DNA of 64,000 nt from a marine bacterium AO1-C (lineage in GTDB: Bacteria; Bacteroidota; Bacteroidia; Cytophagales; Microscillaceae): NCBI GenBank assembly GCA_001890965.1, contig MLAY01000008.1:424341-488340 (forward strand), in the 5' to 3' direction. Shown here in pieces: positions 4,312-20,524 of the stretch (position 1 is its first letter; each line of letters starts with the position of its first letter). The position numbers and the translations under genes are program-made. The notes beneath the pieces are model-generated. The model did no database searches and was not told the origin of the DNA. It saw only the letters and a program-made list of their open reading frames with translations.

Positions 4312-4992
4312 AAAATTTATATTTGGGTAAAATCAAGAAGTTTAGTAAATGGGATGTGTATACTTATAGGATTGTATAATTGAAATATCGCCCCTATAAA
4401 GATTGTTTAAAATTACAATTGACAGGCAACCTGATCATATTCCAGTATAACAGTGAGGCTAAATATAAGTGGTTAATGATGTGTTTCATGTGGGTAGTTG
4501 TTTTAGAATTTAGATGAATTTATTTTTATGATCTTATAGTGAAGATAGGTTATCAAATTCATCGCCCCTATATCAAAAATTGGTTTTATAGATTCGAGGG
4601 GATTTTGTAGAGGAAGTATGACTTATTTTTATATCAAAAGTATTTTTATTTGATTTTGCAGGTAAAGTGAAAATATGCTTCTCAACACAATCATTTCTTG
4701 AGCACTTGTTCTCTACTAGCCCAGAACCTTGTTTGAATTTTTATTTCACAATTAACTCAAAACACCAAATTAAACCTTCCAAAAATCCTTATTTAGGTCG
4801 TCTATGTTTTGTCTATGCGCGAAAATTGTCTCTCCCACAAGTGACCTATAATTTTGCTCTTAATAAAAAATCAGTTTTAAGTAAATAAATGAGTGAATTC
4901 AACATTACGTGCTCCTTCGGTGGTAGGAAGGGGCACTAAAATGTTGTAAAACTTCTTAAATACTGAAAGCACATCAATAGCATTTTAGGTAT

Positions 4993-5748
4993 ATGAAATC
5001 ACTGATTAGATCGTCTCTGTATGTCCTTCTTTTTTTGAGTATTATGGTATTCTCTTCCTGCAATCAGGAAAGTGCTGACCCAACTCCTACCTCAAACCAA
5101 ACAATTGGTAGAATATTACCCATAGGAGCCTCGAGGGTGCAAGGCAAGCGCCCTGATCATGAAAGCTACCGATACGACTTGTGGAAAATGCTGGTAAATG
5201 CTGAGAAGAATTTTGATTTTATAGGCTCTCAAATAGATGAAAGTACTTATCTAACTTTTCAAGGAAAGGAGTTTGACAAAGAACATCAAGGTCGGGGCGG
5301 ATTTACCTCAGTGCAAATTCTTGAATTGTTGAGAAACACTATAGACCAGATAGTGGCCGAGTTGGGTGTTCCTGATGTAGTTTTATTGGGAACCCCTGGC
5401 GGAAACGATGGATTGCAAGGTTTACCCTTTGAAAACGCGGTACAAAACACCCACGCCATCATTGATTTGCTCCAGGCAACGAATCCTAATGTAACCATCA
5501 TTATAGAACAAGCGGCTCCCCCTCGCTCCACTTTGAGCAAGGAGTTGATCGCAGATAATGAGCGTATGAACGAAGAAGTCATAAACATTGCAGCAGCTCA
5601 AACCACCAGTACCTCCAAAGTGATCACAGTAGATATGTACACAGGTTTTAGCGATGCCCTTTTAGCCGATGGGGTACACTATAATGCTGCTGGTGCCAGG
5701 TTTATCGCAGAACGATATTTTGAGACACTCAATAACCTTACAGATTAA
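4993..5748 (+). CDS. SGNH/GDSL-family hydrolase lipoprotein
   Basis: Lipobox ...FSSC; DGVHYN block; 251 aa. Confidence 0.7.
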   Translation: MKSLIRSSLYVLLFLSIMVFSSCNQESADPTPTSNQTIGRILPIGASRVQGKRPDHESYRYDLWKMLVNAEKNFDFIGSQIDESTYLTFQGKEFDKEHQGRGGFTSVQILELLRNTIDQIVAELGVPDVVLLGTPGGNDGLQGLPFENAVQNTHAIIDLLQATNPNVTIIIEQAAPPRSTLSKELIADNERMNEEVINIAAAQTTSTSKVITVDMYTGFSDALLADGVHYNAAGARFIAERYFETLNNLTD

Positions 5749-5846
5749 ACTGGTTGATGTCACAAATTGACCAGAAAACAACTACTGATATTGTATCCAA
5801 CATCTAGCAAAATCTATATTTTTTATTACCCAAATTAGTATTACAC

Positions 5847-6686
5847 ATGAGAATTCTTACAAAGTTTACCCAGGTAGCTTTAGTAGCTACTCTATGTTGC
5901 ACCTTTGCCTGTACGCAAACTGAACAACGTCCTCAGGATGAGATTCCACCTGAAGTTTTAGCCAAAATAAAAACCATGGGCTTTTCTACCGAAGGAGTGC
6001 TCAAAGCAGACGATGGCTATATTGTGGAACGTGATATTTTTATCCCAGTAGAGCGTTTAGGCGAACAATATGAAAACCCCTTAGTGCTTCGAGCAGGTCA
6101 GGAAGAGCAATATCGCACTACCAATGTAGTCAATACCAATGGTGGACGAGTGGTTACGATCTACTTGGACACTCGTTTCAACAGCAATTACCAAACTGCT
6201 TTGCAAGGGGCCATTGGAGCTTACAATAACCTTAATCTGGACCTCAGTTTTCAGCAAACCAATAATGAATCTGGTGCCGATATTCGCATCACTCGTTTGA
6301 ATCGTTTTCTGGAGCTTTTTGGAGTACTAGGTTCAGCTGGATTCCCTACTGCCTCTGGCGATCCATTCAATAGGATCCAACTAAGTGGTGTAATGGAATC
6401 GTCGTTTGGCTACTCTATAGGGGCTATTGCTACTGTAATTGGCCACGAAATAGGCCATTGTATTGGTTTTCGTCATACCGATTATTTCGATCGTTCTATC
6501 AGTTGTGGTGGGGCTACCGATCCTGAACCAGCAGCACCAGAGGGCGCTATTCTTATTCCAGGTACTCCTTCAGGGGCAAATTTGGCCGATGCATCCTGGA
6601 TGCTTGCTTGCTCAGATGGCAGCACCCGTCGTTTCAATGCAGATGATATTACAGCACTTAATTGGATGTATAAAGACAACTTTTAA
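5847..6686 (+). CDS. Dual-action HEIGH zinc metallopeptidase (M57 family) lipoprotein
   Basis: VIGHEIGHCIGFRHTD motif; lipoprotein signal. Confidence 0.75.
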   Translation: MRILTKFTQVALVATLCCTFACTQTEQRPQDEIPPEVLAKIKTMGFSTEGVLKADDGYIVERDIFIPVERLGEQYENPLVLRAGQEEQYRTTNVVNTNGGRVVTIYLDTRFNSNYQTALQGAIGAYNNLNLDLSFQQTNNESGADIRITRLNRFLELFGVLGSAGFPTASGDPFNRIQLSGVMESSFGYSIGAIATVIGHEIGHCIGFRHTDYFDRSISCGGATDPEPAAPEGAILIPGTPSGANLADASWMLACSDGSTRRFNADDITALNWMYKDNF

Positions 6687-6766
6687 ATTCCTCCCAGTTG
6701 ATATACTTACTTTTAATAAGCGAACAAAAGCCTTCACAATTTTGTGGGGGCTTTTATGTTTTGCCA

Positions 6767-7621
6767 CTATACCATTTTGACAATAAATTCTGCCAGTTTT
6801 TGTTTACCCTCGATGCCTATCTTTTTCTTGATACGGTAATGATGGGTAATGACACTCGAGGCTGAAATATTAAATATGTGGGCAATCTCATTATTGGAAA
6901 GACCAATCTTTAGGTAAGCACAATGACGCATATCGGTTTGGCTCAAAGATGGACATTTTTTCAATAATAGATTGAAAAAATTGGGATGTACATTCTCAAA
7001 ATGCACCTTAAATATTTCCCATTCATTTTCCATATTCAGGCTCCCTTCAATTTCTTTTTCTATGGCCCTCATTTCGGTTTTCAAATTAGCTGGTAGCTTA
7101 TAGGCAATCTTATGCACCTTATCCTGAATATTCCCCAGCAATTGTTTCTTTTGGATAATCTCGATGGTTTTACTACTCAACTCCCGATTTTTTTGATCTT
7201 CTATAATCTGACGTTGCTCTTTGACCATACGCAATGTCCGATACATTTTGAGGGTAGATTCTACCCGCGCATATAGCTCAATGTAGTTCAAAGGTTTTGG
7301 TATAAAATCGTCTGCACCTACATTAAAAGCCTTTTTTAGGTTTTCAGGTGTGGTATTTATTCCAGTAATAATGATTACTGGCAGGTGTTTGGTCTTTGGG
7401 TTGATCTTCATCGTCTGAATAAGATCGATCCCGTTCATTACTGGCATTTCCCAATCTGTGATTACAAGTTCTGGTAGTTTTTGCTCCAGAATCTTAAGGG
7501 CAATGGCTCCATTAGCCGCCGATTGTACCCGATATCCTTTAGGGCTTCTCCCTAAATGATAGTTCAATGTTTTCAATCCCTCTTTGTCATCATCTACAAT
7601 AAGTATGGTATTTTTTTCCAT
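6767..7621 (-). CDS. Response regulator with a receiver domain and a LuxR-type HTH
   Basis: N-terminal receiver (ILIVDDD...ITDWEMP); C-terminal LuxR HTH. Confidence 0.8.
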   Translation of the reverse strand: MEKNTILIVDDDKEGLKTLNYHLGRSPKGYRVQSAANGAIALKILEQKLPELVITDWEMPVMNGIDLIQTMKINPKTKHLPVIIITGINTTPENLKKAFNVGADDFIPKPLNYIELYARVESTLKMYRTLRMVKEQRQIIEDQKNRELSSKTIEIIQKKQLLGNIQDKVHKIAYKLPANLKTEMRAIEKEIEGSLNMENEWEIFKVHFENVHPNFFNLLLKKCPSLSQTDMRHCAYLKIGLSNNEIAHIFNISASSVITHHYRIKKKIGIEGKQKLAEFIVKMV

Positions 7622-7765
7622 TTACAGGTAGATATTTAATTATGGTAATATTTGTCTTGCGCTTTATTTTTAAGATTAAAAAGCCGTATGGACTAGCAAT
7701 CAGTAAATCCAATAAAAGTCATTTATTTTACCATTTTTTTCTCTAAAAAACCAACTTCATCCAGC

Positions 7766-10417
7766 TTAAACTACCTCCATCAATTCCTGGTATCTTGTTT
7801 CGTTGTAGGCATACAGGGAGTCCTCTACTTCTATTTTCCAGCGCTGCATGGTTTCACTTGAGTTGCTTTCGATGGTGTTCAAAACATCCAGAATATCAGA
7901 GGTTTCATAAAAAGGATGTTGTTTGAGTTGTGATATCAAAGCAATGAGTAGTTGCCTGTCTTGAGTATTAAAATCAAACTCCTTGGTTTCGGCATATTGC
8001 AACTCAAGCGAAGTAGGCGCAACACTTGCCAACTGTTTACTCAGAGGAATGGTAAACCAAAAGGTAGCACCTTGACCCAGTGTAGACTCTACCCCTATTT
8101 GTCCTCGATGCATTTCTACCGCCAGTTTGCAGAAGGTAAGTCCCAGGCCAGTAGAACCTTTGAAGCTTTTGCTGGCAGGGGCGGCTTGTTGAAACCTATC
8201 AAATATTTTATCCAAATTCTCCGTGGCAATTCCAGTTCCGTTGTCAGTCACAGATATTTTGCAATACTGATCGGTGGTGATGGCTGCTTGGAGCAAAATT
8301 TCCCCACTTTGGGGTGCATACTTGGTCGCATTGGTAAGCAGGTTTACCAACACTCTGGTGATAAGGTCGGTGTCTACAGCTAGTTCTACCTCAGAGGAAG
8401 CCTGCATATGCACTTGTAGTTTTTTATCTTGAATGGGGAAACGCACCTGATAACAAGCTTCTTGTAACAATTGGGCTACTTGTATCACTCCCTTTTTCAA
8501 AGTCATTTGGGCCTCTTCCATTTTTTGCACATCCAAAATGTTCATTACCAGTGTTTGCATACGTCTACCCGCCTGATTGATAGACACATAAGCAGACTCT
8601 AGTCTGGCATCGGAAAGTCCAATAATGGAGTTCAGGGGATTTTTAAGGTCGTGCACAATCATTCCTAGCATTTGCTGTTTGAACCGATCTAAGTTTTGCA
8701 GCTGTCGGTTTACCTTACCCAATATTCGGTTGTTTTGTCGTTGTCTTAAATAGAATAACAATAGTACAAAAACCAACACTATCGCAAACAACACCCCTTG
8801 TCTTTGTTGTCTCAGTTCTTGCTGTTGAATCCTTTTTTCAGCCTCAAGCTTTTCCAGCTTTCGGCGGCTTTGGGCTTCCTGAATCTTTTGCTCATTGGTT
8901 TTTCGCTCCAGTTCCAGCGTAGCCAGAGTTTTATCTCGGGCTAAGTTGGCTTCTCTTAGTTTTCCTTGGCTAATTTCCAGTGCTTGTTGCTGGCGTATCT
9001 TATCTAATATGGCTTTTTGAAAAATCGCATCATCCAGTTCTTTTTTTCTTTTCAACAAGGAGAGTTCTTGTCGCTGAATCTTAATCAGGTTATTTTTAAT
9101 CAACAGGTTTTTCTGCTGAGCAGCTTGCTTATCTTTTAGCTCCTGCAACTGACGCTGTTCGGCCAACAAAGTTTTAATTCTACGCTCTTGCTGATCCATC
9201 AATACCTGATTGTAAGATACTTGCTGGGCTGCTTTCTGTTGATCTACTTGCTGCTGGCGCAACAACTCCTGGTATTTTTTCTTATACTCTTCTGCTCTTT
9301 TATTATCTCTTTCTTGGGCATAAATACGTCTCAATAAATCGTAACTGGTGAGCAACACACTCCAAGCCCGTTTTGGCTCTGCAATGACGATGGCTTGCCT
9401 TACTTCTTTTTTGGCTTGAAAATTATTTCCACTGATATAATAATTGGAGCCAGCAAAGTTGTGAACCTCTGCCCGCTTGATGCTGCTTTTGGATACTACC
9501 TGAGCCGCCTGTCGGAAACTTTTGGTAGCTCGATTAAATGATTGCTGATTGATATGCGCCACTCCTGTATTGACCCATAAAGTCGCCTGAGCCGCTTTTG
9601 ATATTTGTAAGTTTTTTTTCTTGACCAACTCCGACGAAAGCCTAAAATAATTCATAGCCGTCACCAAATCTCCACTACGTTTGTACAAAAAGCCCAAGGC
9701 ATTATACACGCCCGCTACCTGATGCCAGTCTTTTGCTTGTTGGTATAGCTTGAGTAAGGTGAGGTTGTATCGAATCGCCAAGTCATAAGATTTACCCGCA
9801 GACGATACGGCTGTCAATTGCTCCAGAGTTTTAATTATTTCGGGCTGGTTTCGCTCTTTCCGATGCATTCCCAGCAACCTTTCATAAAACTGTCGGGATT
9901 GCTCATAATCCTTCAACATGTAATTACAAAAAGCAATGCCCTCAATATTCGTGATCGCATCTGCATACTTGTTTTTTTGTCTTAACTGGTATGAATTGCG
10001 GAAGTATTGTAAAGCTTTTTTATACAATTGGTACTTTTTCAAAAATGCCCCCAAGGCATCGTATAACTTCACCACCTGAAAGTCCATATTATACAACTGA
10101 CTCAGGTTTTCTACTTGTAAATAATGGGTGAAGGCCTCCGCAGTTTTATCAGTTTCAGTATACAGTTTGCCTAATAATAGTAGTGTTTCTACTTTGTTTT
10201 GCACCAGCAAGTGTTGATCGCTCAACTTCAGTGCTTGTTTGCCATAATTAACAGCTTGTGCATATTGTTTTTGGGTGATGGCGCCTTCCAATTGTGCATT
10301 GAGTTGTAGTACTTTTAGGGAATCGGTCTGTTTATCGTCTTGAGCAAAAAGGGGATTTATCAAAAAACAACCCAACAAAATTGCTTTGAGAAAGGCGTAT
10401 ATAAAGTATTTCTTCAT
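7766..10417 (-). CDS. Sensor histidine kinase with periplasmic TPR repeats and a long coiled coil
   Basis: Signal peptide, TPR repeats, one TM, HisKA (MIVHDLKNPLN) and HATPase_c (DNGTGI...GLGLTF). Confidence 0.85.
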   Translation of the reverse strand: MKKYFIYAFLKAILLGCFLINPLFAQDDKQTDSLKVLQLNAQLEGAITQKQYAQAVNYGKQALKLSDQHLLVQNKVETLLLLGKLYTETDKTAEAFTHYLQVENLSQLYNMDFQVVKLYDALGAFLKKYQLYKKALQYFRNSYQLRQKNKYADAITNIEGIAFCNYMLKDYEQSRQFYERLLGMHRKERNQPEIIKTLEQLTAVSSAGKSYDLAIRYNLTLLKLYQQAKDWHQVAGVYNALGFLYKRSGDLVTAMNYFRLSSELVKKKNLQISKAAQATLWVNTGVAHINQQSFNRATKSFRQAAQVVSKSSIKRAEVHNFAGSNYYISGNNFQAKKEVRQAIVIAEPKRAWSVLLTSYDLLRRIYAQERDNKRAEEYKKKYQELLRQQQVDQQKAAQQVSYNQVLMDQQERRIKTLLAEQRQLQELKDKQAAQQKNLLIKNNLIKIQRQELSLLKRKKELDDAIFQKAILDKIRQQQALEISQGKLREANLARDKTLATLELERKTNEQKIQEAQSRRKLEKLEAEKRIQQQELRQQRQGVLFAIVLVFVLLLFYLRQRQNNRILGKVNRQLQNLDRFKQQMLGMIVHDLKNPLNSIIGLSDARLESAYVSINQAGRRMQTLVMNILDVQKMEEAQMTLKKGVIQVAQLLQEACYQVRFPIQDKKLQVHMQASSEVELAVDTDLITRVLVNLLTNATKYAPQSGEILLQAAITTDQYCKISVTDNGTGIATENLDKIFDRFQQAAPASKSFKGSTGLGLTFCKLAVEMHRGQIGVESTLGQGATFWFTIPLSKQLASVAPTSLELQYAETKEFDFNTQDRQLLIALISQLKQHPFYETSDILDVLNTIESNSSETMQRWKIEVEDSLYAYNETRYQELMEVV

Positions 10418-10432
10418 TATACATTCTATTAC

Positions 10433-12451
10433 TTAGAGAGCCACTTGTAGCCCTACCAGATAAAACGCAGGCACTTGATCGGCAAATACAAACTCAGGGC
10501 TTATACTGTTCAAGGCATTTCTTACATTCAGGAAAATACTATTTTCTTTCCACACTTTATAAGATAGCTTGAAGTTTAGCAGTGTTTTGGCGGGAATAGT
10601 AAGCGCTTGATATTGAGTATCGATGGTGTAGTTTTCGTAAAAATAAAGTTGAGTGTTTAGATTTAACCTTCCAAGCAAACCTTCATAGTTAAGTTGTAAC
10701 CCACCATAAAACTGGGGTGTACTGCCAAACCCATCCTGACTCAAGTCATTAAGCATTTGCCCTGACCTTTGCAATGTAACAAAACCTCTCACCTCTAGCT
10801 TACTCCAGCGCACACTTACCTCTGAAGACAAGCCTGCTTGCGCAAAATTGAACACATTTCTTGCAGACGTAGTGCTATCAGTAAATGCAGTATATCGGTA
10901 AGCACCCTGGTTAAGAAATAACGACAACGAGGCATTGATTCTGGATTGTATCTTAGTACTCCAGCCCAGTTCTATTGTACTTGCATTATTGGGTGCAGCG
11001 TCGGGTACAATCGTGTGTTGGACGTTTTGCCGAAACCGCCGAAATAACGCAGGGGCCTCATTGTATACATAACTTCCCCTGATTAAGTGCGAAGATATTT
11101 TGTAGGTACTACTTAGTTGATAAGACAGAAAAGGCCGTTCTGACTGAGCAAAGACATCACCTCTTGCTGAGGCCATCACCCGTAATTGAGGTATTGGATT
11201 TAAGTTAGCTTTTAAAAAAACATAGTAGTTGGTAAAACTTTCGCTGGGTGTAGGTACTTGATTTGATATGTGGTTGCTTTGTAATAAACCTATTCCTGGT
11301 TGAAAATCGACCTTTCTAAAACGAAACTTATAATCAGCCATTGCCTGCAAATGATTGAGCGAAAACTGGTTTCCTGCATACCCTTGGGCATAATCCCGCT
11401 CGCCAACCTGGTACGATGCTGTCACATGTAGCTTATCGACAAATAGATTTACGTTGGCAGTCAAGGTATTGGTAGTCCGTTGTGCCAATGCCAAAGTATC
11501 ATCGGTTTGAATGGTTTGAGCAAAGGTTTGTTGGTAAGATACCCTGGTATGTACCACTACTTTGTTACTAAACGCATAAGAAGTAAAAGCATTTACCCCA
11601 AAACGTTCCTGTGCTTTTTTGGTGTTAAGATTGGTCTCAAAAGCATTGTATTTAAAAGTCAGCAACGAGTCACTGGGTAGCAAACGATTTTCTAATAGTA
11701 AATAATAGTCGTCCTGAAAGCGTTTCAAAAAATAATAATGCCCCGAAAGCCTAAAACGAAACTTATCGCCAATACCTCCACTCACCGAGCCTTGATGAAG
11801 GTAAGACACATCCTGCCCTCCCCCATTCTGAATATTAAATGCGGTAGCACCTGTTTGGCTTTGTAAAGCAAATTTTAGGTTTTGTGCTTGCGCTTGTTTG
11901 GTAAAAATATGAACAACTCCACCAATGGCTGCATTGCCATAAAATATCCCTGAAGGTGTTTTAATCACTTCAATACGTTCTATATCGTGAATAGTGACGG
12001 GGAGAGTTTCCCATATAATGCCTGCAAACAAATAATCGTATTGGGGCACATGATCAATCACTACCAATAACTGCGTATTTTTGGTATCGTGTAGTAAACC
12101 ACTAGTAGTGGTATTGTTTTGCCGCAAAAACACCTCATAGTTTCCGTTGGTTTTTTGGGTAACCCATACCCCTGGTACCAAGCGCAATGCTTCTGGAATA
12201 TTCAATGCCCCACTTTGTTCAATCATTTGTTGATTGATCACCGTAGCAGATACTGGAGCAGACAGGTAGTCTTCCAAGCTTTTAGAAGCTGAATAAATCT
12301 GGGGGCGTTTGGCTTTCTTAGGCTGGAGGCTGAGCACGTCTTCTTTTACCGTAAATTGCAAAAACGCCTCACTGCTGTCTGGGGGTGTTTGTGCCACCGA
12401 TTGGCAAATAATGCCTATGCAAACAAAGAAAATGATGATGTATTTTGTCAT
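10433..12451 (-). CDS. TonB-dependent outer-membrane receptor
   Basis: Signal peptide, plug and barrel blocks; 672 aa. Confidence 0.8.
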   Translation of the reverse strand: MTKYIIIFFVCIGIICQSVAQTPPDSSEAFLQFTVKEDVLSLQPKKAKRPQIYSASKSLEDYLSAPVSATVINQQMIEQSGALNIPEALRLVPGVWVTQKTNGNYEVFLRQNNTTTSGLLHDTKNTQLLVVIDHVPQYDYLFAGIIWETLPVTIHDIERIEVIKTPSGIFYGNAAIGGVVHIFTKQAQAQNLKFALQSQTGATAFNIQNGGGQDVSYLHQGSVSGGIGDKFRFRLSGHYYFLKRFQDDYYLLLENRLLPSDSLLTFKYNAFETNLNTKKAQERFGVNAFTSYAFSNKVVVHTRVSYQQTFAQTIQTDDTLALAQRTTNTLTANVNLFVDKLHVTASYQVGERDYAQGYAGNQFSLNHLQAMADYKFRFRKVDFQPGIGLLQSNHISNQVPTPSESFTNYYVFLKANLNPIPQLRVMASARGDVFAQSERPFLSYQLSSTYKISSHLIRGSYVYNEAPALFRRFRQNVQHTIVPDAAPNNASTIELGWSTKIQSRINASLSLFLNQGAYRYTAFTDSTTSARNVFNFAQAGLSSEVSVRWSKLEVRGFVTLQRSGQMLNDLSQDGFGSTPQFYGGLQLNYEGLLGRLNLNTQLYFYENYTIDTQYQALTIPAKTLLNFKLSYKVWKENSIFLNVRNALNSISPEFVFADQVPAFYLVGLQVAL

Positions 12452-12471
12452 TAATATGTGCCCTTCAAATA

Positions 12472-14706
12472 CTAAAAACCACAGCCTGTAAATGTATATT
12501 CTGCTTTAAATATTCCACTCTGTTGAGTGGCTACATCTTTACTATTGAAACTGAAAAGAAACACCACCAGAGGTATAGTAGAAGCAGGTATTTCTTCGCT
12601 TACAATATTGTGAATGGGCATAAAACCCCGCCCTGCTGTTGGGTCACCAGTACCTATATTCGTTCGCCATAAATCACGATTGGTACCTATGAAAAAGCAA
12701 ATATCGGGATCAAAAATAGCCAATGGACTCAGTTTATCATCAAACTCATACCGCCTGAACAAAGTATTGTTTTTATCGGTCACATCCAGCATATTACCAT
12801 TATAGGTATAAGTAAATTTTTCGGTAAGCGTAGCTCGGGTAGCATCTGGATGAATACTCCAGGTGGCTCGTTGCTTTTGGGCATTGTATTCAAAATACCA
12901 ATATTCTCTGGTGGTACCATTGGTATTGACAAGGGTAATAGATTCTAATACGCCATTGGTGTATAAATAATTGCAAGTATATACCAATACACTGCTTTGA
13001 TAAACGCCTACACTCTTAATCGCATTGTTGGCCTCATAGTTTACTCTAAACTCTAAGTCTCGCCCAGCGGTAACCATTGTTGCCAAACGGTTTTGGGCAT
13101 CATAGGTATAGCGCTGGCTGTTTCGGCTATCATTCGTATTATCAATCAATTTGATTTCTTCCAGCCTACAAGTAGCACTAATACAGGCATTTACAGTAAT
13201 AGTATTAGAATTAGCCGATTCCTTGGTCAGTCTCTTGGCACGTAAACGGTAATAATAGGTGGTTTTAAAATCAAGTCCTGTCACATCTCTGGAAGTACCT
13301 GCAACCTCTAGTGCCTGGTACCCTTGCACAAAATTAGTGAAATTGGCATCGGTGGCTACATCGAGTAAATACAAGCTAATATTAGCTTGGGCCTGCCAAT
13401 TGGCAGTAAACGAAAACGCTTTTTGATTAGTAGCCGCATCGGCGGTAGGAGTAGCCAACAAGTTGGTTGTTAGTTGTACCACATTCGAAAAATCAGAAGT
13501 AGCGTTGAGGCCTTGAGCTCTCACCCGATAATAATAAGTAGTACTGGCTTCTACTGGTTGCACTTGAGCAGTATTGCCCACTACTACCACTCCATTATAT
13601 CCTGTAAGTACTCTTGTAAATTGAGCATCTAATGCCACATCCAACAAATAGGCAGAGGCATTGGGCACATCCCCCCAATTGGCCTGAAAACTCCCACTTT
13701 GTACCAAGGTAGCCGCATTGGCCACAGGAGGAGCAAGATTGGCGGTAGTAACCGTAATCACGTTGGAATTATTAGAAGTAGATTCTGCATTTACAGCTCT
13801 TATTCGGTAAAAATAGGCAGCATTCGCATCCAGATTGGGTACTACCAAACTATTGGTGTTTATGGAGAGATCATCATAACCCGCAAGCTTGTTGGTAAAC
13901 AAAGCATCGGTAGCCACATCTACCCGATACGAAAGTGCTTCGGGCATTGCCTGCCAATTGGCTACAAAGCTCGTAAGTTGTATGTTGGTAGCTGCCAGAG
14001 CCACTGGCTGAGGTAAGGTGCTGGTGGACACCATTTCCACATTAGAATATTCAGAAAACGAGTTGGATTGTTTTATCTTAATTCTATAAAAGTATTGTTT
14101 GTTTACTGTTACATTACTTACCAAAAAGGAAGTATCACTGGGAGGAATCTCAACATTGCTCAGGTTATCTACCAAATTGCTAAATCGTTCGTCAAATGCT
14201 ACATCGAGATAGTAAAATGAGACAATGGGCATTTTTTTCCAATGTATTCTAAAGCCAGTAGCACTCACCTCAGTTGCTGGAAATACAATTGGCATCTCTA
14301 GCGCCTTGGTAGTTACTTCTATTACATTAGAGTTTTTGGAAATCTGATTGGAGATTTTGGCGCGTACCCGATAAAAATAAACCGTATTGGCTTCTAAACC
14401 GTTGACTACTAACTCAGTAGCTTCGACTTGCCTATTTTGATAGTTGGCTACAATTTGGGTAAACTCTTGGTCAAGCGCTACATCTACCTCATAGTTAGAA
14501 GCTCCTCTTACTTCACTCCATTGAGCACTAAAGCCTACGGCAGTCACCTGATTAGCAGTCTGCGCTTTGGGTAAAGGTAATATGAACTCTTTTTCAAACG
14601 ATTTGCAACCTGTAACCCAATAGATAAGAATAATAATAAATGTTTCTTTTCTGATAATGTTTGTCATTATGCCTAATTGATTCATCACAAGTTCATTTTT
14701 AGACAT
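12472..14706 (-). CDS. Cell-surface lipoprotein with about 6 tandem fibronectin type-III-like repeats and a C-terminal beta-rich domain
   Basis: About 95-aa repeats: SFxAxWxxxxxAxxYxLDVAxDxxF....YYRVRA. Confidence 0.7.
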   Translation of the reverse strand: MSKNELVMNQLGIMTNIIRKETFIIILIYWVTGCKSFEKEFILPLPKAQTANQVTAVGFSAQWSEVRGASNYEVDVALDQEFTQIVANYQNRQVEATELVVNGLEANTVYFYRVRAKISNQISKNSNVIEVTTKALEMPIVFPATEVSATGFRIHWKKMPIVSFYYLDVAFDERFSNLVDNLSNVEIPPSDTSFLVSNVTVNKQYFYRIKIKQSNSFSEYSNVEMVSTSTLPQPVALAATNIQLTSFVANWQAMPEALSYRVDVATDALFTNKLAGYDDLSINTNSLVVPNLDANAAYFYRIRAVNAESTSNNSNVITVTTANLAPPVANAATLVQSGSFQANWGDVPNASAYLLDVALDAQFTRVLTGYNGVVVVGNTAQVQPVEASTTYYYRVRAQGLNATSDFSNVVQLTTNLLATPTADAATNQKAFSFTANWQAQANISLYLLDVATDANFTNFVQGYQALEVAGTSRDVTGLDFKTTYYYRLRAKRLTKESANSNTITVNACISATCRLEEIKLIDNTNDSRNSQRYTYDAQNRLATMVTAGRDLEFRVNYEANNAIKSVGVYQSSVLVYTCNYLYTNGVLESITLVNTNGTTREYWYFEYNAQKQRATWSIHPDATRATLTEKFTYTYNGNMLDVTDKNNTLFRRYEFDDKLSPLAIFDPDICFFIGTNRDLWRTNIGTGDPTAGRGFMPIHNIVSEEIPASTIPLVVFLFSFNSKDVATQQSGIFKAEYTFTGCGF

Positions 14707-14840
14707 TATTTAAGCTTAAAATGGCAGGAACAATATGGTTGGTCGATGATAAAAATAATTGATCAATATAGCGGGGCTAGTTTAAATCAAACCACGCCCA
14801 CTCAATTTACTATTTTATATGATAGAAAGGATATTTGTAA

Positions 14841-14863
14841 ACATAGACAAAACATAGACAGGG
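14841..14863 (-). promoter_or_regulatory. Direct-repeat motif TGTCTATGTTTTGTCTATG about 135 bp upstream of the FN3-repeat gene
   Basis: The plus strand reads acatagacaaaacatagacaggg. Confidence 0.45.
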
Positions 14864-15067
14864 CAAATTTATAACGAATCTATATTTTACAACATAAATC
14901 ATTCGTGTATTCAAAATGTTTCCAATGCTTACACTTTTTTAAAGCTCATAAACAAAACAATCTACTAAAGGCAAAGAATTTCAATTAGATTTCGGATAAG
15001 TTGTACAGGATACATATAAAAAACCACCCCAAAAGCCTGGGATGGTTTGCATCTTTATGGTTAATAA

Positions 15068-15105
15068 ACTAAAAACTCGCCTCGACAACAAAAGTCGAGA
15101 CGAGT
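15068..15105 (-). terminator. Rho-independent terminator of esterase paralog 1
   Basis: actcgcctcgac...gtcgagacgagt hairpin with a T-run on the minus strand. Confidence 0.6.
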
Positions 15106-15180
15106 TCAATAATTACCACTTCTCCTAAGTATGATAATCAAGGGTTAAGTATGCGAAGGTGGAAGTAATCGTGATGGATT

Positions 15181-16227
15181 TTATTGATTCATTTTCCTCA
15201 AAATAAATTGTAAAATACTCTCTCCATTAGAGTTGTCCATATTCATCTGAGGGATAACTGCTACGCAGGCCAGACCTGCTTCATTGGCTTTTTCATAAAT
15301 AGCATTGGCATGTAATGGGTGGTGTAATACCGCGCCCTTATGTTCAGGAAACCTATAAGGTGAAGATGATTTGGTGACATAAATCTCAGGATCATTGCTA
15401 TCCATCATGCTTAACATATCTACGGCTTGACGATATGAATCTATTTCGGGAGAATCTAGCTCTTCCATAGAAGACAAGCCGTAAAACTTTAACAAAGTCC
15501 CTTCTCCAACCAGGCTTATAATTGTATCCTGGCTCATTCCTTCGCTTTCATATGTTGAAAAAACAGTGGTATGCCAATTTACCACATCATAAGTAGACTG
15601 GGTATTGGTGGCTATGATGCCTTTCACTTTTGTTGACTCCTTCAGAAACTCATATTGCCCATTTTCATTGGCAAAATCGTCCTGCAACCCAATCCAAAGG
15701 CTGGTTCCTGCTCCTGCCGAACCTCCCATCAGGATAATTTTTTCCTTATCGATATTAAAATCATTGGCATAATATCGAATCACCTGTAGAGCCCTTCTGG
15801 AATCATTCAGGCACTTACGTACCCCTATAGTTTCATTTTCTTCCAATAGACGATAGTTAATCGAGGCAAAGGCTATTTTATTAGCCAGCAGCGAATTGAT
15901 CAATGCTTCCTCTTTTGTGTAAGCTTTTGTTTTATCTCCACTGGTAAAACCTCCCCCATGAATATAGATTACTAATGGAGTAGGCTGGCTAGAAACAGGT
16001 GCCAGAAAGTCAAACTTATGTCTTTCGTCAAAACCATAGGGTATGTCTTCATAAAATGCGGCTTCAGCCGAGGTGTTAACTGGCAAGCTCGCTGTAGGTA
16101 TGAGTTCTAAAGAACCTTGGATAGGAAGATTGTAAGGATCTAATCTGTCAAGCAGGTGTTCATTGTTGGTACATGCAGCAAAAAACGAAATCACGAATAG
16201 TATACATAATGCCTTTTTCATATTCAA
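15181..16227 (-). CDS. Alpha/beta-hydrolase (HSL-family, HGGG motif) esterase/lipase lipoprotein, paralog 1
   Basis: IYIHGGGFTSGDK oxyanion motif; MGGSAGAG nucleophile elbow. Confidence 0.75.
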   Translation of the reverse strand: MNMKKALCILFVISFFAACTNNEHLLDRLDPYNLPIQGSLELIPTASLPVNTSAEAAFYEDIPYGFDERHKFDFLAPVSSQPTPLVIYIHGGGFTSGDKTKAYTKEEALINSLLANKIAFASINYRLLEENETIGVRKCLNDSRRALQVIRYYANDFNIDKEKIILMGGSAGAGTSLWIGLQDDFANENGQYEFLKESTKVKGIIATNTQSTYDVVNWHTTVFSTYESEGMSQDTIISLVGEGTLLKFYGLSSMEELDSPEIDSYRQAVDMLSMMDSNDPEIYVTKSSSPYRFPEHKGAVLHHPLHANAIYEKANEAGLACVAVIPQMNMDNSNGESILQFILRKMNQ

Positions 16228-16365
16228 ATAGTGATTAAAACTGAAACGTATAAATTGTATAATTTAAAGCGAATAAGTGCTCAAAACCTTTTTAAAACAC
16301 AGGTTCATTGCACATTTAACACATATACAATTTACGATTCTTGTTAGGCATCAGAAAGTTTTCCA

Positions 16366-16397
16366 CATAGACAAAATATGTACAATTCAAATTTCTC
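16366..16397 (-). promoter_or_regulatory. Conserved upstream element (catagacaaaatatgtacaa..caaatttctc) about 140 bp upstream of esterase paralog 1
   Basis: Near-identical copy at 18971..19002. Confidence 0.45.
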
Positions 16398-16550
16398 TTT
16401 GAATATTTTAAAGGCCTGCAGTGATCAATATTGATCGGGTATTAGAACTCATCTCGACTTCATATTCTAAAAAGCAAAAACTCGCCCTGACAGTAAAAAG
16501 TCAAAACGAGTTCATTAAACATAAAATGGTACTATGCTATACTCAAGGTA

Positions 16551-17576
16551 TTAGTTACCTATTTTCCTTAAAACAAAATTGGTAATGCTTTCTCCGTTAG
16601 AATTATCGATGTTCATTTGTGGGATAATAGCCACACAAGCCACTCCTGTTGCGCTGGCTTTATCCATCAACACTTTGGCATGTAACGGATGGTGTAATAC
16701 TGCACTTTTATCGGCTGGAAATCGGTAAGGAGCACCTGGTCTTGATACGTAGATTTCAGGATCATCGCCAGACATCAGGCTTAGCATATCTGCATCCATT
16801 CTTTTTTGTACCACTGTAGGCGAAGTGAGTTCGCTTAAAGAAGACATTCCATAAAATTGCAACACTGTTCCCTCCTCTACCAAGCTCACCACAGTGTCTT
16901 GATCCATACCTTGTGATGCGTATTCTGAAAATACGGTAGTATGCCAATCTGCCACGTCATAAGTAGACTGGGTATTCACCGCAATAATTCCTTGTACTCT
17001 TGTAGATTCTTTCAATATATCATCGGTAGCATTCGCATCGGCCAATTCATTGTTCAAACCAATCCACAAACTGGTTCCCGCTCCAGCAGAACTACCCATT
17101 AATACCACTTTATTTTTATCAATATTAAAAGAGCTGGCATAATACCTTATAAACTGAAGCGCTGTTTTAGAGTCATTCAAAGGCTTAAGTACTCCTTCGG
17201 TTTCGCTTGCCCCCTGTAATAAGCGATAATTTATCGTAGCGAAAGCAATGTTGTTAGACAAAAACGAATTGATTAAAGCTTCTTCATTATATATATCTTC
17301 TTTGTTGCCTGCAGTAAAGCCACCTCCGTGAATATAAATTACTAATGGAGTTGCCTGTGAAGACTCTGGGGCAAAAAAATCAAACACGTTTCTATTGTCT
17401 GAACCATAAGATACGTCCTTGTAAAAATTTACTTGTGCCGTAGTAGTAATGGGCGATTGAGACGCTGTAAGTGCTAGAGTAGGCACCTCGTTTTGAGGAG
17501 TAGGATCATCTCCTTCATTGTTATTACAGGAGGCAAAAAATAAAATAATAGCAAGTAAGTATACAGCGTTTTTCAT
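16551..17576 (-). CDS. Alpha/beta-hydrolase (HSL-family) esterase/lipase lipoprotein, paralog 2
   Basis: Same motifs; likely start at MKNAVYLL (17576). Confidence 0.75.
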   Translation of the reverse strand: MKNAVYLLAIILFFASCNNNEGDDPTPQNEVPTLALTASQSPITTTAQVNFYKDVSYGSDNRNVFDFFAPESSQATPLVIYIHGGGFTAGNKEDIYNEEALINSFLSNNIAFATINYRLLQGASETEGVLKPLNDSKTALQFIRYYASSFNIDKNKVVLMGSSAGAGTSLWIGLNNELADANATDDILKESTRVQGIIAVNTQSTYDVADWHTTVFSEYASQGMDQDTVVSLVEEGTVLQFYGMSSLSELTSPTVVQKRMDADMLSLMSGDDPEIYVSRPGAPYRFPADKSAVLHHPLHAKVLMDKASATGVACVAIIPQMNIDNSNGESITNFVLRKIGN

Positions 17577-17820
17577 AACCTGATGATTGTAAAAATTGAA
17601 AATAATTCCCCTCAACATTCGTAGTATTTTGGTAAAAAACTCTTATCTATATGAAGTCGAGATGACTCCTATTTTTAAAAACATATTTTGAATACAATAG
17701 TTTATGTATAGCAATACACGATGACCAGAAAAGCTATGTTAAAACAACATACAAGCAAAAATGTAGATATTTATAAAGGGGGCTTGTTGCGTTCCTGAAT
17801 AAGTGCAACAATTACCATTT

Positions 17821-18840
17821 TTAATTGCCTATCTTTCTTACAATAAAGGCCTCAATACTTTCTCCGTTAGAATTATCGATGTTCATCTGTGGAATTACCG
17901 CTACACAAGTAATCCCTCTTTCGCTGGCTTTATCCATCAATGCTTTGGCATGCAATGGGTGGTGCAATACCGATCCATAACTTGGAGGGAATAAATACGG
18001 CCCGCGATTGTTTACATAAATCTCAGGATCATCACTCGTCATTACATTGAACATATCTACTCTTTGTCGGTATTGGTCTGTTTCGGGGGTATTGATCTGT
18101 TCCACAGAAGACAAGCCATAAAATGTCAAAAACGTTGATTCTCCTGCCATATCCATAATAAATTCATCACTCATGCCTTGGCCTTGGTATTCCGAAAACA
18201 CCGCAGTATCCCAGGATAGCACATCATAAGTAGATTGCGTATTGGTAGCAATAATCGCCTGTACTCTGGTTGACTCTCTCTGAATCTCATCGGTCGCATT
18301 AGGATCAGCCAAATCATTATTTAACCCAATCCAAAGACTGGTTCCTGCTCCAGCAGAACCACCCATTAAGGCTACTTTGTTTTTATCAATATTGAAAGCA
18401 CTGGCATAATATCTTATGAACTGAAGCGCAGTTTTAGAGTCGTTCAAAGATTTTATTACTCCTTCAGTTTCGTTTTCTCCAAGCAAGCGATAATTAACCG
18501 TAGCAAAGGCAATTCCTTTATCCAATAAGGAGTTGATAAATGCCTGATCATTGTATATGGCTCTTTTGTCGCCACCAGTAAAACCACCTCCGTGGATGTA
18601 GATTAATAAAGGGGTGGGCTGGTCTGATGTAGGCGCAAAGAAGTCAAACGCATTCTTTTCGTCTGCACCATAAGATACATCCTGGTAAAATTTAACTGCT
18701 GTAGTGGTATTAAAGGGAGTATTGGATGTAGTGAGCGCTAATGTTGGCGCTTCTGACTGGGGTGTGGGTTCATCGGTTGTTTCTTGACTACAAGAAGCAA
18801 AAAATAAAATTACTGCTAGTAAATATACAGCCTTTTTCAT
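17821..18840 (-). CDS. Alpha/beta-hydrolase (HSL-family) esterase/lipase lipoprotein, paralog 3
   Basis: Same motifs; closely related to paralog 2 (N-terminal MKKAVYLLAVILFFASC). Confidence 0.75.
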   Translation of the reverse strand: MKKAVYLLAVILFFASCSQETTDEPTPQSEAPTLALTTSNTPFNTTTAVKFYQDVSYGADEKNAFDFFAPTSDQPTPLLIYIHGGGFTGGDKRAIYNDQAFINSLLDKGIAFATVNYRLLGENETEGVIKSLNDSKTALQFIRYYASAFNIDKNKVALMGGSAGAGTSLWIGLNNDLADPNATDEIQRESTRVQAIIATNTQSTYDVLSWDTAVFSEYQGQGMSDEFIMDMAGESTFLTFYGLSSVEQINTPETDQYRQRVDMFNVMTSDDPEIYVNNRGPYLFPPSYGSVLHHPLHAKALMDKASERGITCVAVIPQMNIDNSNGESIEAFIVRKIGN

Positions 18841-18970
18841 AACCTAGTGATTGTTAAAATTTGAAAATGATTCCCCCGATATTTGTAATGTTTTATTGAA
18901 AAATATTCGGGAATTCTTTAATTGAATTAATAATTTGTACGATGCTGCTCAGCGGTTGGAGAAAACAAAA

Positions 18971-19002
18971 CATAGACAAAATATGTACAAGCCAAATTTC
19001 TC
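18971..19002 (-). promoter_or_regulatory. Conserved upstream element about 130 bp upstream of esterase paralog 3
   Basis: catagacaaaatatgtacaagccaaatttctc. Confidence 0.45.
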
Positions 19003-19039
19003 CTGAAAGGGGTAAAAGTGAAGCAACCCATCATTGAAT

Positions 19040-19435
19040 TTAAGGTTTACTCATTAGCCATTTGTGGGCTTGTTCAATATCGTCGAAGTGCCTCACCTGA
19101 AAAGTTTCAACGAGTGGTTTTTGAATATTCTTAGTATAAAAACGAACAAACACATCTTTCGATACTACTAAGGCTATTCGTCTTAAGCCTGCCTTAAATG
19201 CCTTAGGTACCATTTCTTCTTTCAGCCATTTTTGATCTTCTACACTTACGACTCCCTCATTCCTCATGTCAGATAACCACTTATTGGCTCCATATTTCAA
19301 AATTATTTCATAAGCAGCATTGATCGCCTGACGATAATGGCTACTCTGCTGGTGTGTGCGCCATATTACCTCTACCAAATTCACTTGAGGGTTATAATTA
19401 ACTGCCGCAAACTCTTCGTTCAAATAGTGTATCAT
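19040..19435 (-). CDS. Hypothetical protein (131 aa)
   Basis: ORF only. Confidence 0.4.
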   Translation of the reverse strand: MIHYLNEEFAAVNYNPQVNLVEVIWRTHQQSSHYRQAINAAYEIILKYGANKWLSDMRNEGVVSVEDQKWLKEEMVPKAFKAGLRRIALVVSKDVFVRFYTKNIQKPLVETFQVRHFDDIEQAHKWLMSKP

Positions 19436-19585
19436 TGTAAAAAATATTAGTTTTTCCTGATAAAATGATGGTGGGTAAAGGACCTTAAGAACACCTTACT
19501 TGTGAAGGATTTTTAATGCTAAGCTTATCTCAAGTTACGGTCATATAACGGTTAAGGCACGGTAAATTACTGCAAAAAACAGCCT

Positions 19586-19607
19586 GTCTATGTTTTGTCT
19601 ATGTGGC
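19586..19607 (+). promoter_or_regulatory. Direct-repeat motif TGTCTATGTTTTGTCTATG
   Basis: Exact copy of the 4797/14841 motif. Confidence 0.4.
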
Positions 19608-19634: not shown

Positions 19635-19676
19635 CATAAAAAAACCATTGCCTAACAACCTGTTAAACAATGGTTT
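19635..19676 (-). terminator. Minus-strand Rho-independent terminator at the distal end of the tRNA array
   Basis: aaaccattg...caatggttt stem followed by T7 on the minus strand. Confidence 0.6.
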
Positions 19677-19689: not shown

Positions 19690-19839
19690 AAAAGGGGTAA
19701 CCAACGATCAGTGAATTAGTACTTTACCATTAAGCTACGAGGCCTTATGATTGGCTTGATCGTAAGGAGGCCCCGGTGGGAATCGAACCCACATCTCATC
19801 ATTAAAAGTGACGCGAAGTAACACTCATCTACGACACCC
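19690..19839 (-). ncRNA. Permuted/split tRNA-like unit a (Lys-like, anticodon TTT). Order on the minus strand: 26-nt leader, anticodon arm, T-arm, acceptor 3' strand CGGGGCC, 24-nt loop, acceptor 5' strand GGCCTCG, TA, D-arm, trailer
   Basis: Perfect 7-bp acceptor complementarity across the loop; canonical T-loop TTCGATT. Confidence 0.5.
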
Positions 19840-19842
19840 TTT

Positions 19843-19918
19843 TGGTTCGCCCGGTAGGATTCGAACCTACGGCCCTCTGATTAAGAGTCAGATGCTCTAC
19901 CAACTAAGCTACGAGCGA
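19843..19918 (-). tRNA. tRNA-Lys(CTT)
   Basis: Cloverleaf, anticodon loop CTCTTAA, CCA encoded. Confidence 0.85.
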
Positions 19919-19924
19919 ATTTCT

Positions 19925-20107
19925 ACAAGCAATATATCTGTAGAAAGGTTTATAAAAACAAGAGGTAACAAGCGGTAAGTGTACATAAAAACATTCTATC
20001 CAATTAAACTACAGGGGCATTATAATATATATTAGTGCCCCTGGCGGGATTCGAACCCGCACCTCATGATTTGGAGTCACGCGAAGTAACACTCACCTAC
20101 GACACTC
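19925..20107 (-). ncRNA. Permuted/split tRNA-like unit b (Trp-like, anticodon CCA). Acceptor 3' strand CAGGGGC, loop ACTAATATATATTATAAT, acceptor 5' strand GCCCCTG, D-arm. An 11-bp leader:trailer helix forms between GGTGAGTGTTAC and GTACACTTACC
   Basis: Sequence pairing read directly. Confidence 0.5.
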
Positions 20108-20109
20108 TT

Positions 20110-20185
20110 TGGTTCGTCCGGTGGGACTCGAACCCACAACCTTCCGGTTAAAAGCCGGGAACTCTACCAATTAAGCTACGAACGA
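20110..20185 (-). tRNA. tRNA-Lys(TTT)
   Basis: Anticodon loop CTTTTAA; CCA encoded. Confidence 0.85.
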
Positions 20186-20188
20186 ATG

Positions 20189-20521: not shown

Positions 20522-20524
20522 TTT

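Follow-up and report, generated by a model that had tools for sequence, protein, structure and literature searches.

What do the short direct repeats ahead of the secreted-hydrolase genes of the marine bacterium AO1-C do, and which protein reads them? The copies lie between 4.8 and 19.6 kb of a 64,000-nucleotide stretch (the window), and a preliminary description had read them as a candidate operator of a regulon, resembling the sites of OmpR/PhoB-family response regulators such as the Pho box. Here we report that the repeats are probably the operator of a self-contained two-component regulon, in which a locally encoded response regulator most likely switches on five neighbouring surface-hydrolase operons through the motif.

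The repeat, its genes and its promoters

In the window, the repeat unit is TGTCTATG-TTT-TGTCTATG, with a period of 11 bp. It had been described with a TTTT spacer; this period-12 pattern, TGTCTATG-TTTT-TGTCTATG, has no match in the window and all five sites carry TTT, so the period is corrected to 11. The shared element itself is real: at up to 3 mismatches the 19-mer occurs five times, against 0.66 +/- 0.79 expected, a count reached in none of 100 shuffled windows, and the 8-mer TGTCTATG alone occurs eight times (1.8 expected). The copies follow either (T/C)GTCTATG-TTT-TGTCTATG or a hybrid, TGTACATA-TTT-TGTCTATG:

4799..4817, plus strand: S1, candidate operator, CGTCTATGTTTTGTCTATG, that is CGTCTATG-TTT-TGTCTATG; ahead of the SGNH hydrolase/M57 peptidase unit
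14842..14860, minus strand: S2, candidate operator, exact TGTCTATG-TTT-TGTCTATG; ahead of the FN3-TBDR-HK(-RR) unit
16366..16384, minus strand: S3, candidate operator, TGTACATATTTTGTCTATG, hybrid TGTACATA-TTT-TGTCTATG; ahead of esterase 1
18971..18989, minus strand: S4, candidate operator, TGTACATATTTTGTCTATG, hybrid TGTACATA-TTT-TGTCTATG; ahead of esterase 3
19585..19603, plus strand: S5, candidate operator, exact copy, in inverted orientation with respect to the downstream gene 19435..19040

Several earlier observations held: the coordinates were right to within a few bases, the distances of 130-175 bp to the start codons were confirmed, and four copies are oriented with their downstream gene, the fifth being inverted. 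The additional conserved element noted at the esterase sites, GAGAAATTTG, is likewise real, lying 5' of both S3 and S4 and being kept in L102, an orthologous contig. None of the five copies lies within a gene, and there is one 5' of each of the five transcription units between 4.8 and 19.6 kb, which are set apart by terminators:

4993..6686, plus strand: target unit 1, with genes for a GDSL/SGNH lipoprotein (4993-5748) and an M57 metallopeptidase lipoprotein (5847-6686)
6726..6755, no strand assigned: hairpin terminator separating the M57 gene from the convergent response-regulator gene
6767..7621, minus strand: response regulator, REC, 60-residue helix and LuxR/GerE-type HTH module; candidate binder of the repeats
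7766..10417, minus strand: sensor histidine kinase with signal peptide, TPR repeats, coiled coil, single TM (541-559), HisKA and HATPase
10433..12451, minus strand: TonB-dependent receptor, Plug domain
12472..14706, minus strand: FN3-repeat lipoprotein, opening the FN3-TBDR-HK(-RR) unit
15021..15107, minus strand: two hairpin terminators after esterase 1
15181..16227, minus strand: esterase paralog 1, BD-FAE, lipoprotein
16478..16513, minus strand: hairpin terminator after esterase 2
16551..18840, minus strand: esterase paralogs 3 (17821-18840) and 2 (16551-17618)
19040..19435, minus strand: SpoIIAA-like (STAS) gene, proposed target of S5
19642..19676, minus strand: terminator of the tRNA array, insulating S5 from upstream transcription

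Because neither a motif copy nor a predicted terminator lies between esterases 3 and 2, the two probably form one unit driven by S4.

Bacteroidota promoters carry a -33 TTTG and a -7 TAnnTTTG element, and each site is accompanied by a box of the latter kind:

4849..4856, plus strand: -7 box of Bacteroidota type, exact TAATTTTG, 31 nt after S1
14802..14809, minus strand: -7-like box TAAATTGA, one-base variant of TAnnTTTG, 32 nt after S2
16327..16334, minus strand: -7-like box TAAATTGT, one-base variant of TAnnTTTG, 31 nt after S3
18932-18939, minus strand: -7 box TACAAATT, a poor match, at the place expected from S4
19530..19537, minus strand: -7-like box TAACTTGA, 47 nt from the inverted S5

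The boxes of S2-S5 deviate from TAnnTTTG, that of S4 being poor. The gap of 31-32 nt in four promoters places the site at about -43 to -61, S1-S4 lying just upstream of where the -33 element would sit, and S5 stands 16 nt further upstream than the other four. We also considered S5 as an integrase arm-type site beside the tRNA array, a reading rejected because S5 and its 47-nt spacing are kept in the Microscillaceae MAG UBA11690 (L014), there directly 5' of an esterase gene. The TGTCTATG repeat is a real promoter element.

The response regulator and its relatives across Bacteroidota

The only regulator found in the window, a response regulator (6767-7621), is paired with the TPR histidine kinase and matches the Response_reg (E=2e-24) and GerE (E=3e-9) profiles; residues D10, D11, D56 and K109 are invariant in its alignment with relatives, and its PDB profile matches are EvgA, EsrB and NarL. 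The predicted structure (pLDDT 90) comprises REC, a helix over residues 113-173 and a helical HTH domain, preceded by two extra conserved helices (W..FK.HF..VHP.FF). The OmpR/PhoB assignment proposed earlier is not supported, the HTH being of GerE/LuxR type instead of a winged helix and the full-length model superposing best on FixJ and StyR.

The C-terminal DNA-binding module belongs to a large Bacteroidota family of 5310 clusters (exhaustive representative search, clusters at 50% identity, E<1e-10), whose majority layout is signal peptide, TPR, TM and HTH; viral contigs scanned with the module alignment yielded no relatives, and look-ups of the exact protein, for the window regulator and for the AO1-C orthologue, had no match. 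For PF19904 (DUF6377/SusR_C), neither the window regulator nor any of eight relatives gives a match up to E<=1, and some homologues match faintly. The nearest NCBIfam name is BT3442, of which the literature says only that this TPR protein heads a MACPF cluster. A characterised relative may exist in P. gingivalis CdhR, a LuxR-type orphan of 22 kDa.

Across 185,579 genomes, a collection that excludes the source organism's own, the exact 18-mer has 21 matches, against about 17 by chance on a rough estimate; the signal is the identity and context of the matches, not their count. Several Bacteroidota orders have the exact motif. Two unrelated loci place it close to the window regulator's C-terminal module: a Maribacter locus (L002) has it within the 290 bp that separate a thiol-cytolysin gene from a divergent, module-bearing TPR-TM-HTH gene, and in a Flavobacteriales MAG (L021) it stands about 60 bp past a module-bearing gene, whose N-terminal part is uncharacterised, and before a Pvc16_N gene. 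Outside the window, the genes behind the motif are a cytolysin, a contractile-injection-system gene (Pvc16_N) and large secreted proteins instead of Pho genes. In five Bacteroidota loci a -7 box stands 31-32 nt past the exact motif, reading exactly TAnnTTTG in four and TAGTTTTA, with one mismatch, in L002.

The window's repeat rule recurs beside this large family of related regulators. In 54 non-redundant metagenomic loci fetched via the module, there are 34 TGT-led repeats of period 11, and 18 of them are found 0-400 bp past the regulator stop codon, a stretch making up 3.4% of the sequence, while periods 9, 10, 12 and 13 yield 0-1 repeats there. A histogram of offsets from operator repeat to -7 box peaks at 31, 42 and 53 nt, and 12 of 737 -7 boxes in these loci have TGT at both -39 and -50, with about 0.4 expected by our own calculation; an exact TAnnTTTG lies 31-32 nt past the operator in 10 related loci. 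Only about 20 of the 54 have a recognisable repeat adjoining the regulator gene. As a separate observation, gut Bacteroidales loci display a second geometry, an inverted ATAGACA-N4-CTGACA of period 10 lying 47-49 nt from the -7 box, which resembles S5 and is seen in few independent cases.

The recognition-helix residues covary with the repeat sequence. The helix signature R..[VI]Q pairs with a downstream TGTAGTA site in eight members, a ninth (L088) having no TGTAGTA site that we could find, and it is absent from all nine members adjoining GTCTAY repeats. When loci were retrieved through Microscillaceae proteins related to the regulator (58-94% identity), 6/6 had GTCTAT(G/A) repeats, in two cases directly 5' of the TPR kinase gene. 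In the closest relative, contig L102 (regulator 94% identical), S3 is identical at 19/19 positions, though S2 has decayed to TATCTATATTTTATATATG with loss of both TGT cores, so that autoregulation through S2 is not conserved.

A model of the regulon and its alternatives

The sites, the way they are phased with -7 boxes, the domains that make up the regulator, its association with the motif across genomes and the covariation are all shown here; that the regulator binds the sites and activates, its head-to-tail mode, its stoichiometry and its signal are what we infer. The TPR and coiled coil lie N-terminal to the kinase's single TM, which would place the sensor outside the cytoplasm. The kinase (7766-10417) would sense an envelope or extracellular cue and phosphorylate the regulator (6767-7621), which may oligomerise via its long helical stalk, its LuxR-type HTH modules binding head-to-tail on two TGT-led octamers that follow each other at one helical turn (11 bp). 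The model that fits best has a phospho-activated activator at about -43 to -61, just ahead of the expected -33 element, the position of an RNA polymerase-recruiting activator; S5, inverted and 16 nt further out, would be the exception. Putative targets are the SGNH hydrolase and M57 peptidase, the FN3 lipoprotein with the TonB-dependent receptor and kinase, esterase 1, esterases 3 and 2, and the STAS protein, and the regulator gene is probably part of the FN3-TBDR-HK unit, which would create positive feedback through S2. Proteins with a LuxR-type HTH classically sit on inverted repeats in the form of symmetric dimers, and a parallel coiled-coil stalk would favour two-fold symmetry over the head-to-tail arrangement, which counts against the model. 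The earlier proposals that the motif is the shared operator of a local regulon, 5' of secreted or lipoprotein hydrolase genes, and that a response regulator encoded nearby binds it fare well, the former being supported and the latter most likely.

The operators could be real and yet be bound by another transcription factor encoded elsewhere, leaving the neighbouring regulator a bystander or a target. A conserved global factor would account for the motif's presence in several Bacteroidota orders, repeats are recognised at only part of the module-family loci, and binding by the local regulator is itself a proposal. We regard this as unlikely, as independent loci pair motif and module at 60-300 bp, the repeat enrichment is specific to the stretch just past the regulator stop codon, repeat changes track recognition-helix changes, and every locus fetched with Microscillaceae relatives of the regulator has the motif.

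Also improbable is a repressor or roadblock role for a regulator bound to the repeats. Activation is the proposed sign of regulation, and S5 and a site in L105 are, in position or orientation, unlike a simple activator promoter. Repression is nonetheless hard to reconcile with sites that lie upstream of, not over, the -33 and -7 elements and are strictly phased with them, or with the off-consensus -7 boxes of S2-S4, which are as expected of activator-dependent promoters; by analogy, SusR, the founder of a related family, is an activator (PMC3878776).

Much less credible is a Pho box read by a PhoB/OmpR-family winged-helix protein in a phosphate-starvation regulon, a reading that is largely refuted. 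The Pho box, CTGTCAT-N4-CTGTCAT, consists of tandem direct repeats with an 11-bp period, and the repeats described here are likewise direct, of that period and with a TGTC core; furthermore, the FN3 protein has weak PhoD_N and purple-acid-phosphatase_N matches. The latter are, however, generic FN3-like domains, no OmpR-type regulator was found in the window, and its PhoD-like phosphatase gene (49287-50642) is without a motif copy, the targets being esterases, a peptidase, a TonB-dependent receptor as well as a STAS protein. Nor does a phosphate regulon fit the toxin and secretion genes behind the motif elsewhere, or a motif that accompanies, and covaries with the recognition helix of, a LuxR-type module.

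That duplication or a small mobile repeat left the copies behind as relics, without regulatory role, can be dismissed almost entirely: S3 and S4 do share flanks and precede paralogous esterase genes, but S1, S2 and S5 have only the 19-mer in common, their unrelated flanks speaking against a dispersed mobile repeat, S3 and S5 are conserved in relatives whose flanking genes are 81-94% identical, and the motif is phased with -7 boxes in phylum-wide loci.

Wider meaning and comparison with known systems

The activator model gives, locally, a compact and testable regulon of one sensor kinase, one regulator and five promoters, controlling surface lipoprotein esterases, peptidases and a TonB-dependent receptor. 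Beyond the window, we see an even chance that a TGT-octamer rule is the general mode of DNA recognition among the SusR-related regulators of LuxR type in Bacteroidota, a very large and uncharacterised family spanning TPR-TM-HTH one-component forms, REC-HTH response regulators and forms of about 950 residues. The rule, proposed jointly with that generalisation and on the same balance, would have the regulators bind 2-5 TGT-led octamers arrayed at an 11-bp period, of which the last ends 31 nt before the -7 box, and would include a code in which a few recognition-helix residues set octamer positions 4-8, for example R..[VI]Q for TGTAGTA. Our literature search turned up no account of this operator architecture in print.

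SusR-type regulators are specific to Bacteroidota and control much of the phylum's nutrient foraging; to our knowledge, their binding sites are essentially unknown, the sole model in the literature searched being computational. If true, the rule would make the regulons of many polysaccharide-utilisation loci, cytolysins and contractile injection systems predictable from sequence alone, supersede the in-silico SusR-like motif model, and allow promoter engineering as well as regulon prediction in gut, marine and soil Bacteroidota. It would also tie SusR-related LuxR-type regulators to toxin and contractile-injection-system genes.

The SusR-like regulators (SusR/BT3705 and paralogs; PF19904, DUF6377/SusR_C) are, like the window module, restricted to Bacteroidota, and most module relatives share their layout, in which an extracytoplasmic sensor is joined by one TM to a cytoplasmic HTH at the C-terminus, with TPR repeats behind a signal peptide as the sensor of these relatives; in both groups the genes adjoin the outer-membrane uptake or hydrolase genes that they would control. 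In the window, by contrast, the module sits on a soluble REC-HTH response regulator that does not span the membrane, the TPR sensor being on a separate kinase, and neither this regulator nor the eight relatives tested match PF19904. SusR acts as an activator, and its binding sites have been called uncharacterised; the SusR-like motifs published from in-silico work consist of two boxes at a distance of 67 or 77 bp (PMC3878776), whereas the octamers here are adjacent, 11 bp apart, and end 31 nt from the -7 box.

With the NarL/FixJ family (FixJ, StyR, NarL, EvgA) the window regulator shares REC and a tetrahelical GerE/LuxR_C HTH, but it differs in the 60-residue helical stalk between them, in the two helices ahead of the HTH and in its putative sites, direct repeats instead of the usual inverted heptamers. 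PhoB resembles it in having tandem, promoter-proximal direct repeats of 11-bp period and TGTC core with a response regulator as binder (here a candidate), yet PhoB is a winged-helix protein whose box replaces the -35 element, whereas the present site is situated 5' of the Bacteroidota -33 element and has no link to phosphate genes. Finally, the SARP activators of Streptomyces, which have an OmpR-type fold, bind heptameric direct repeats with 11-bp periodicity. In both systems at least two short direct repeats, spaced by one helical turn, keep a fixed distance to the core promoter, and both would rely on a pathway-specific activator encoded beside its targets, albeit with unrelated DNA-binding folds, in different phyla and on different types of promoter.

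The octamer repeat and its genes

The repeat was first spelled with a 4-nt spacer in the preliminary description, a form that matches nowhere in the window; in the actual unit, TGTCTATG-TTT-TGTCTATG, the period is 11 bp. Exactly five copies with at most three mismatches (S1-S5) occur in 64 kb, against 0.66 expected, and no shuffle gives five, while the TGTCTATG octamer alone is found 8 times against 1.8 expected. All five are intergenic, and their flanks are unrelated save for those of S3 and S4, which lie in the promoters of paralogs. A lone TGTCTATG at 29209, within an alpha-amylase gene, was judged a chance occurrence.

Repeat copies and selected genes of the window
4799-4817, plus strand: S1, distal half CGTCTATG
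14842-14860, minus strand: S2, exact
16366-16384, minus strand: S3, TGTACATA-TTT-TGTCTATG
18971-18989, minus strand: S4, TGTACATA-TTT-TGTCTATG
19585-19603, plus strand: S5, exact
6767-7621, minus strand: response regulator, REC + GerE
7766-10417, minus strand: histidine kinase with TPR repeats
19040-19435, minus strand: SpoIIAA-like (STAS) gene

Between 4.8 and 19.6 kb, the plus strand encodes two lipoproteins (an SGNH protein and an M57 peptidase), faced convergently by genes for an FN3 lipoprotein, a TonB-dependent receptor, the TPR histidine kinase and the response regulator; three BD-FAE esterase lipoproteins and the SpoIIAA-like gene are also found there. These units are set apart by hairpin terminators, with one motif copy per unit. 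In the kinase, a single transmembrane segment (541-559) lies between an N-terminal portion, which holds a signal peptide, TPR repeats and a long coiled coil, and the HisKA/HATPase domains. No regulator other than the REC + GerE protein is encoded in the window.

The DNA comes from a Bacteroidota, probably one of the Microscillaceae: the window also encodes T9SS sorting domains and PorP/SprF, and is syntenic with the Microscillaceae MAG UBA11690 at 81-92% nucleotide identity. Besides, a TPR + SpoIIE (PP2C) phosphatase gene lies at 40877-43087 (plus strand) and, with the SpoIIAA-like gene behind S5, hints at a partner-switching module tied to the regulon. An array of 27 tRNA genes occupies 19766-23143 on the minus strand alone, with tandem duplications that include triplets of Arg and of Pro and a 313-bp Lys-Asn-Trp unit whose copies are 94% identical; it is unusually large for a bacterial chromosome and partly common to UBA11690. 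At 24259-25863 (minus strand), a 534-aa protein combining Ntox3 (bacterial toxin 3) and class-3 lipase/Mbeg1-like domains is possibly a polymorphic toxin or an effector lipase. Three starch-binding modules of the CBM26 type and, at the C-terminus, a T9SS sorting domain are present in the alpha-amylase (26487-29933, plus strand; 1148 aa).

The regulator module and repeats in other genomes

By domain and fold, the window regulator is a NarL/FixJ-class protein. The parts of its AlphaFold model (pLDDT 90) are REC, one helix over residues 113-173, another helix and a DNA-binding domain of six helices. Over the full length, the PDB entries that it matches best are FixJ and StyR; the closest solved HTH domains are those of EvgA, EsrB and NarL. 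With its C-terminal 139 residues as query, an exhaustive search returned 5310 clusters (50% identity) at E<1e-10. In this family the module is always C-terminal, standing behind REC (~285 aa), behind a signal peptide, TPR repeats and a transmembrane segment (550-680 aa), or in forms of ~950 aa, with the consensus W..FK.HF..VHP.FF..L....P.LS..DL+.CAY....LS.KEIA.LLNI...SV...RYRLKKKL. Database labels are limited to LuxR/CsgD-type or hypothetical, and Pfam recognises GerE.

With one genome per species scanned, the exact 18-mer gave 21 matches, about half of them in Bacteroidota, against ~17 by chance on a rough estimate. Several matches present 3-5 copies in tandem, as in Flavobacterium akiainvivens and a Bacteroidales MAG. 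In Maribacter sp. LLG6340-A2 (L002, 3663-7413), the exact motif is intergenic, between a thiol-activated cytolysin gene, whose product is a lipoprotein, and a divergent gene with signal peptide, TPR, transmembrane and HTH regions. Among NCBIfam models, the “BT3442 family” is closest to the latter; the BT3442 gene of B. thetaiotaomicron stands at the head of a MACPF/pore-forming-protein cluster (PMC2954219). In the Flavobacteriales MAG JAKSBJ010000129 (L021, 789-2497), the motif lies ~60 bp past a gene whose product shares the C-terminal HTH module and has an uncharacterised N-terminal part, and two GTCTATG repeat pairs separate this regulator from a Pvc16_N gene immediately 3' of it. The Pvc16_N family takes its name from a gene of the Photorhabdus virulence cassette, which is a contractile injection system, and the L021 locus suggests that such systems are under control by this regulator type. 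Over their C-terminal 85-90 residues, the L002 and L021 regulators show homology to the C-terminal end of the window regulator (E=1e-19 and 1e-24).

The loci of closer relatives of the window regulator also carry forms of the repeat. The L102 locus, with a 94% identical regulator, is syntenic (esterase 1, FN3, TonB-dependent receptor, kinase, regulator) and retains S3 at 19/19 positions together with a box resembling the -7 element, while S2 has decayed to TATCTATATTTTATATATG. The window 19-mer is exact at L105 (61% regulator identity), CGTCTATATTTTGTCTATA stands directly 5' of the TPR kinase gene at L022 and L107 (58-60%), L106 (63%) has TGTCTATATTTTGTCTATA as well as an inverted copy ahead of the kinase gene, and L103 (70%) has TGTCTATG-TAT-TGTACATA. 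At L103 (Microscillaceae UBA11690, DMXI01000271, 16351-20855), this site is ~640 bp 5' of a 3070-aa ABC-toxin (TcA-like) gene, which a paralogous regulator-kinase pair adjoins.

We further fetched 80 metagenomic loci through the module rather than the motif, of which 54 (607 kb in total) were left after redundancy removal. Period-11 repeats of TGT-led octamers (at least 7/8 identical) number 34, and 18 of these, in 12 loci, sit 0-400 bp past the regulator stop codon, a stretch making up 3.4% of the sequence; periods of 9, 10, 12 and 13 gave 0-1 in the same stretch. Octamer variants among members include TGTCTATG/A, TGTCTACG, TGTAGTATG, TGTAGTAGG, TGTATATTC, TGTAAGTA, TGTACACC and TGTAGCCC. Leaving the kinship of members aside, the octamer covaries with the recognition helix: R..[VI]Q is present in each of the eight members followed by TGTAGTA repeats and in 0/9 adjoining GTCTAY repeats. 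At a ninth R..[VI]Q member, L088, no TGTAGTA site was found.

Promoter geometry

The repeats stand at a preferred distance from the Bacteroidota -7 box, TAnnTTTG. Exactly 31 nt after S1 comes TAATTTTG, a perfect box; S2 has TAAATTGA after 32 nt and S3 has TAAATTGT after 31 nt, and at S4 the box at 31 nt is poor. The exact 31-32-nt spacing occurs at S1 and in L003, L015, L016, L019, L025, L030, L039, L041, L057 and L068. Five of the exact 18-mer matches have a box 31-32 nt 3' of the motif, four of them exact and the one at L002 with one mismatch. Across the 54 non-redundant loci, distances from repeat end to box are most often 31 nt (10 cases), with lesser peaks at 42 and 53 nt that arrays of 3-4 units should produce. 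By our own calculation, TGT at both -39 and -50 is found at 12 of 737 TAnnTTTG boxes against ~0.4 expected, nearly all 12 being clear tandem repeats.

S5 has the inverse orientation to its gene, and 47 nt separate it from TAACTTGA. UBA11690 keeps both site and spacing, lacks the STAS gene and has the site directly 5' of the esterase-3 orthologue. S5 resembles a second geometry seen in gut Bacteroidales contigs (L048, L051, L063, L076, L077, L079), in which ATAGACA-N4-CTGACA, the reverse complement of TGTC units with period 10, is placed 47-49 nt 5' of the -7 box and 100-150 bp past the regulator stop.

AAATTTG is conserved 3-4 nt 5' of the distal repeat at S2-S4 and in L102, its esterase-promoter form being GAGAAATTTG. 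In many other loci an A6-A10 tract takes its place; about half of the sites have such a tract of 6-10 bases directly 5' of the distal repeat. Either could act as an UP-like or bending element, or provide an extra protein contact.

Proposed mechanism and comparison with known systems

The repeat is a real cis-regulatory element of an ordinary kind, a response-regulator operator, and S1-S5 are very probably functional. The neighbouring regulator probably binds them, and its action as an activator is fairly likely; we infer the regulatory sign, stoichiometry and signal. The proposed mechanism, with which the data agree, is a two-component regulon: the LuxR-type response regulator would bind a pair of octamers spaced by one helical turn, between about -43 and -61, and would activate transcription of the targets, its own kinase operon among them. 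The TPR sensor is carried on the kinase and the HTH on the receiver, which gives the window system the look of a one-component TPR-TM-HTH protein split in two. Since the targets comprise lipoprotein esterases, an SGNH hydrolase, a peptidase and a TonB-dependent receptor, we speculate that the regulon serves foraging on an esterified or acetylated polymer. For the large and unstudied Bacteroidota family to which the operator belongs, it suggests a rule that is general and testable.

The resemblance to OmpR/PhoB sites and the Pho box proposed in the preliminary description fails because the output domain, the gene content and a PhoD-like gene without the motif all contradict it. No published description of this operator was found in the literature on the octamer, DUF6377, BT3442 or TPR/LuxR regulators. 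Relatives of the window regulator resemble SusR-like regulators in lineage and architecture, whereas the window regulator itself does not match the Pfam SusR_C profile; PF19904 (DUF6377; SusR_C in precomputed annotations) matches some homologues only, and faintly, with no match in nine proteins tested. The only published work on SusR-like sites (PMC3878776) describes SusR sites as uncharacterised and predicts a pair of boxes spaced by 67 or 77 bp, an architecture that differs from that of the window repeat.
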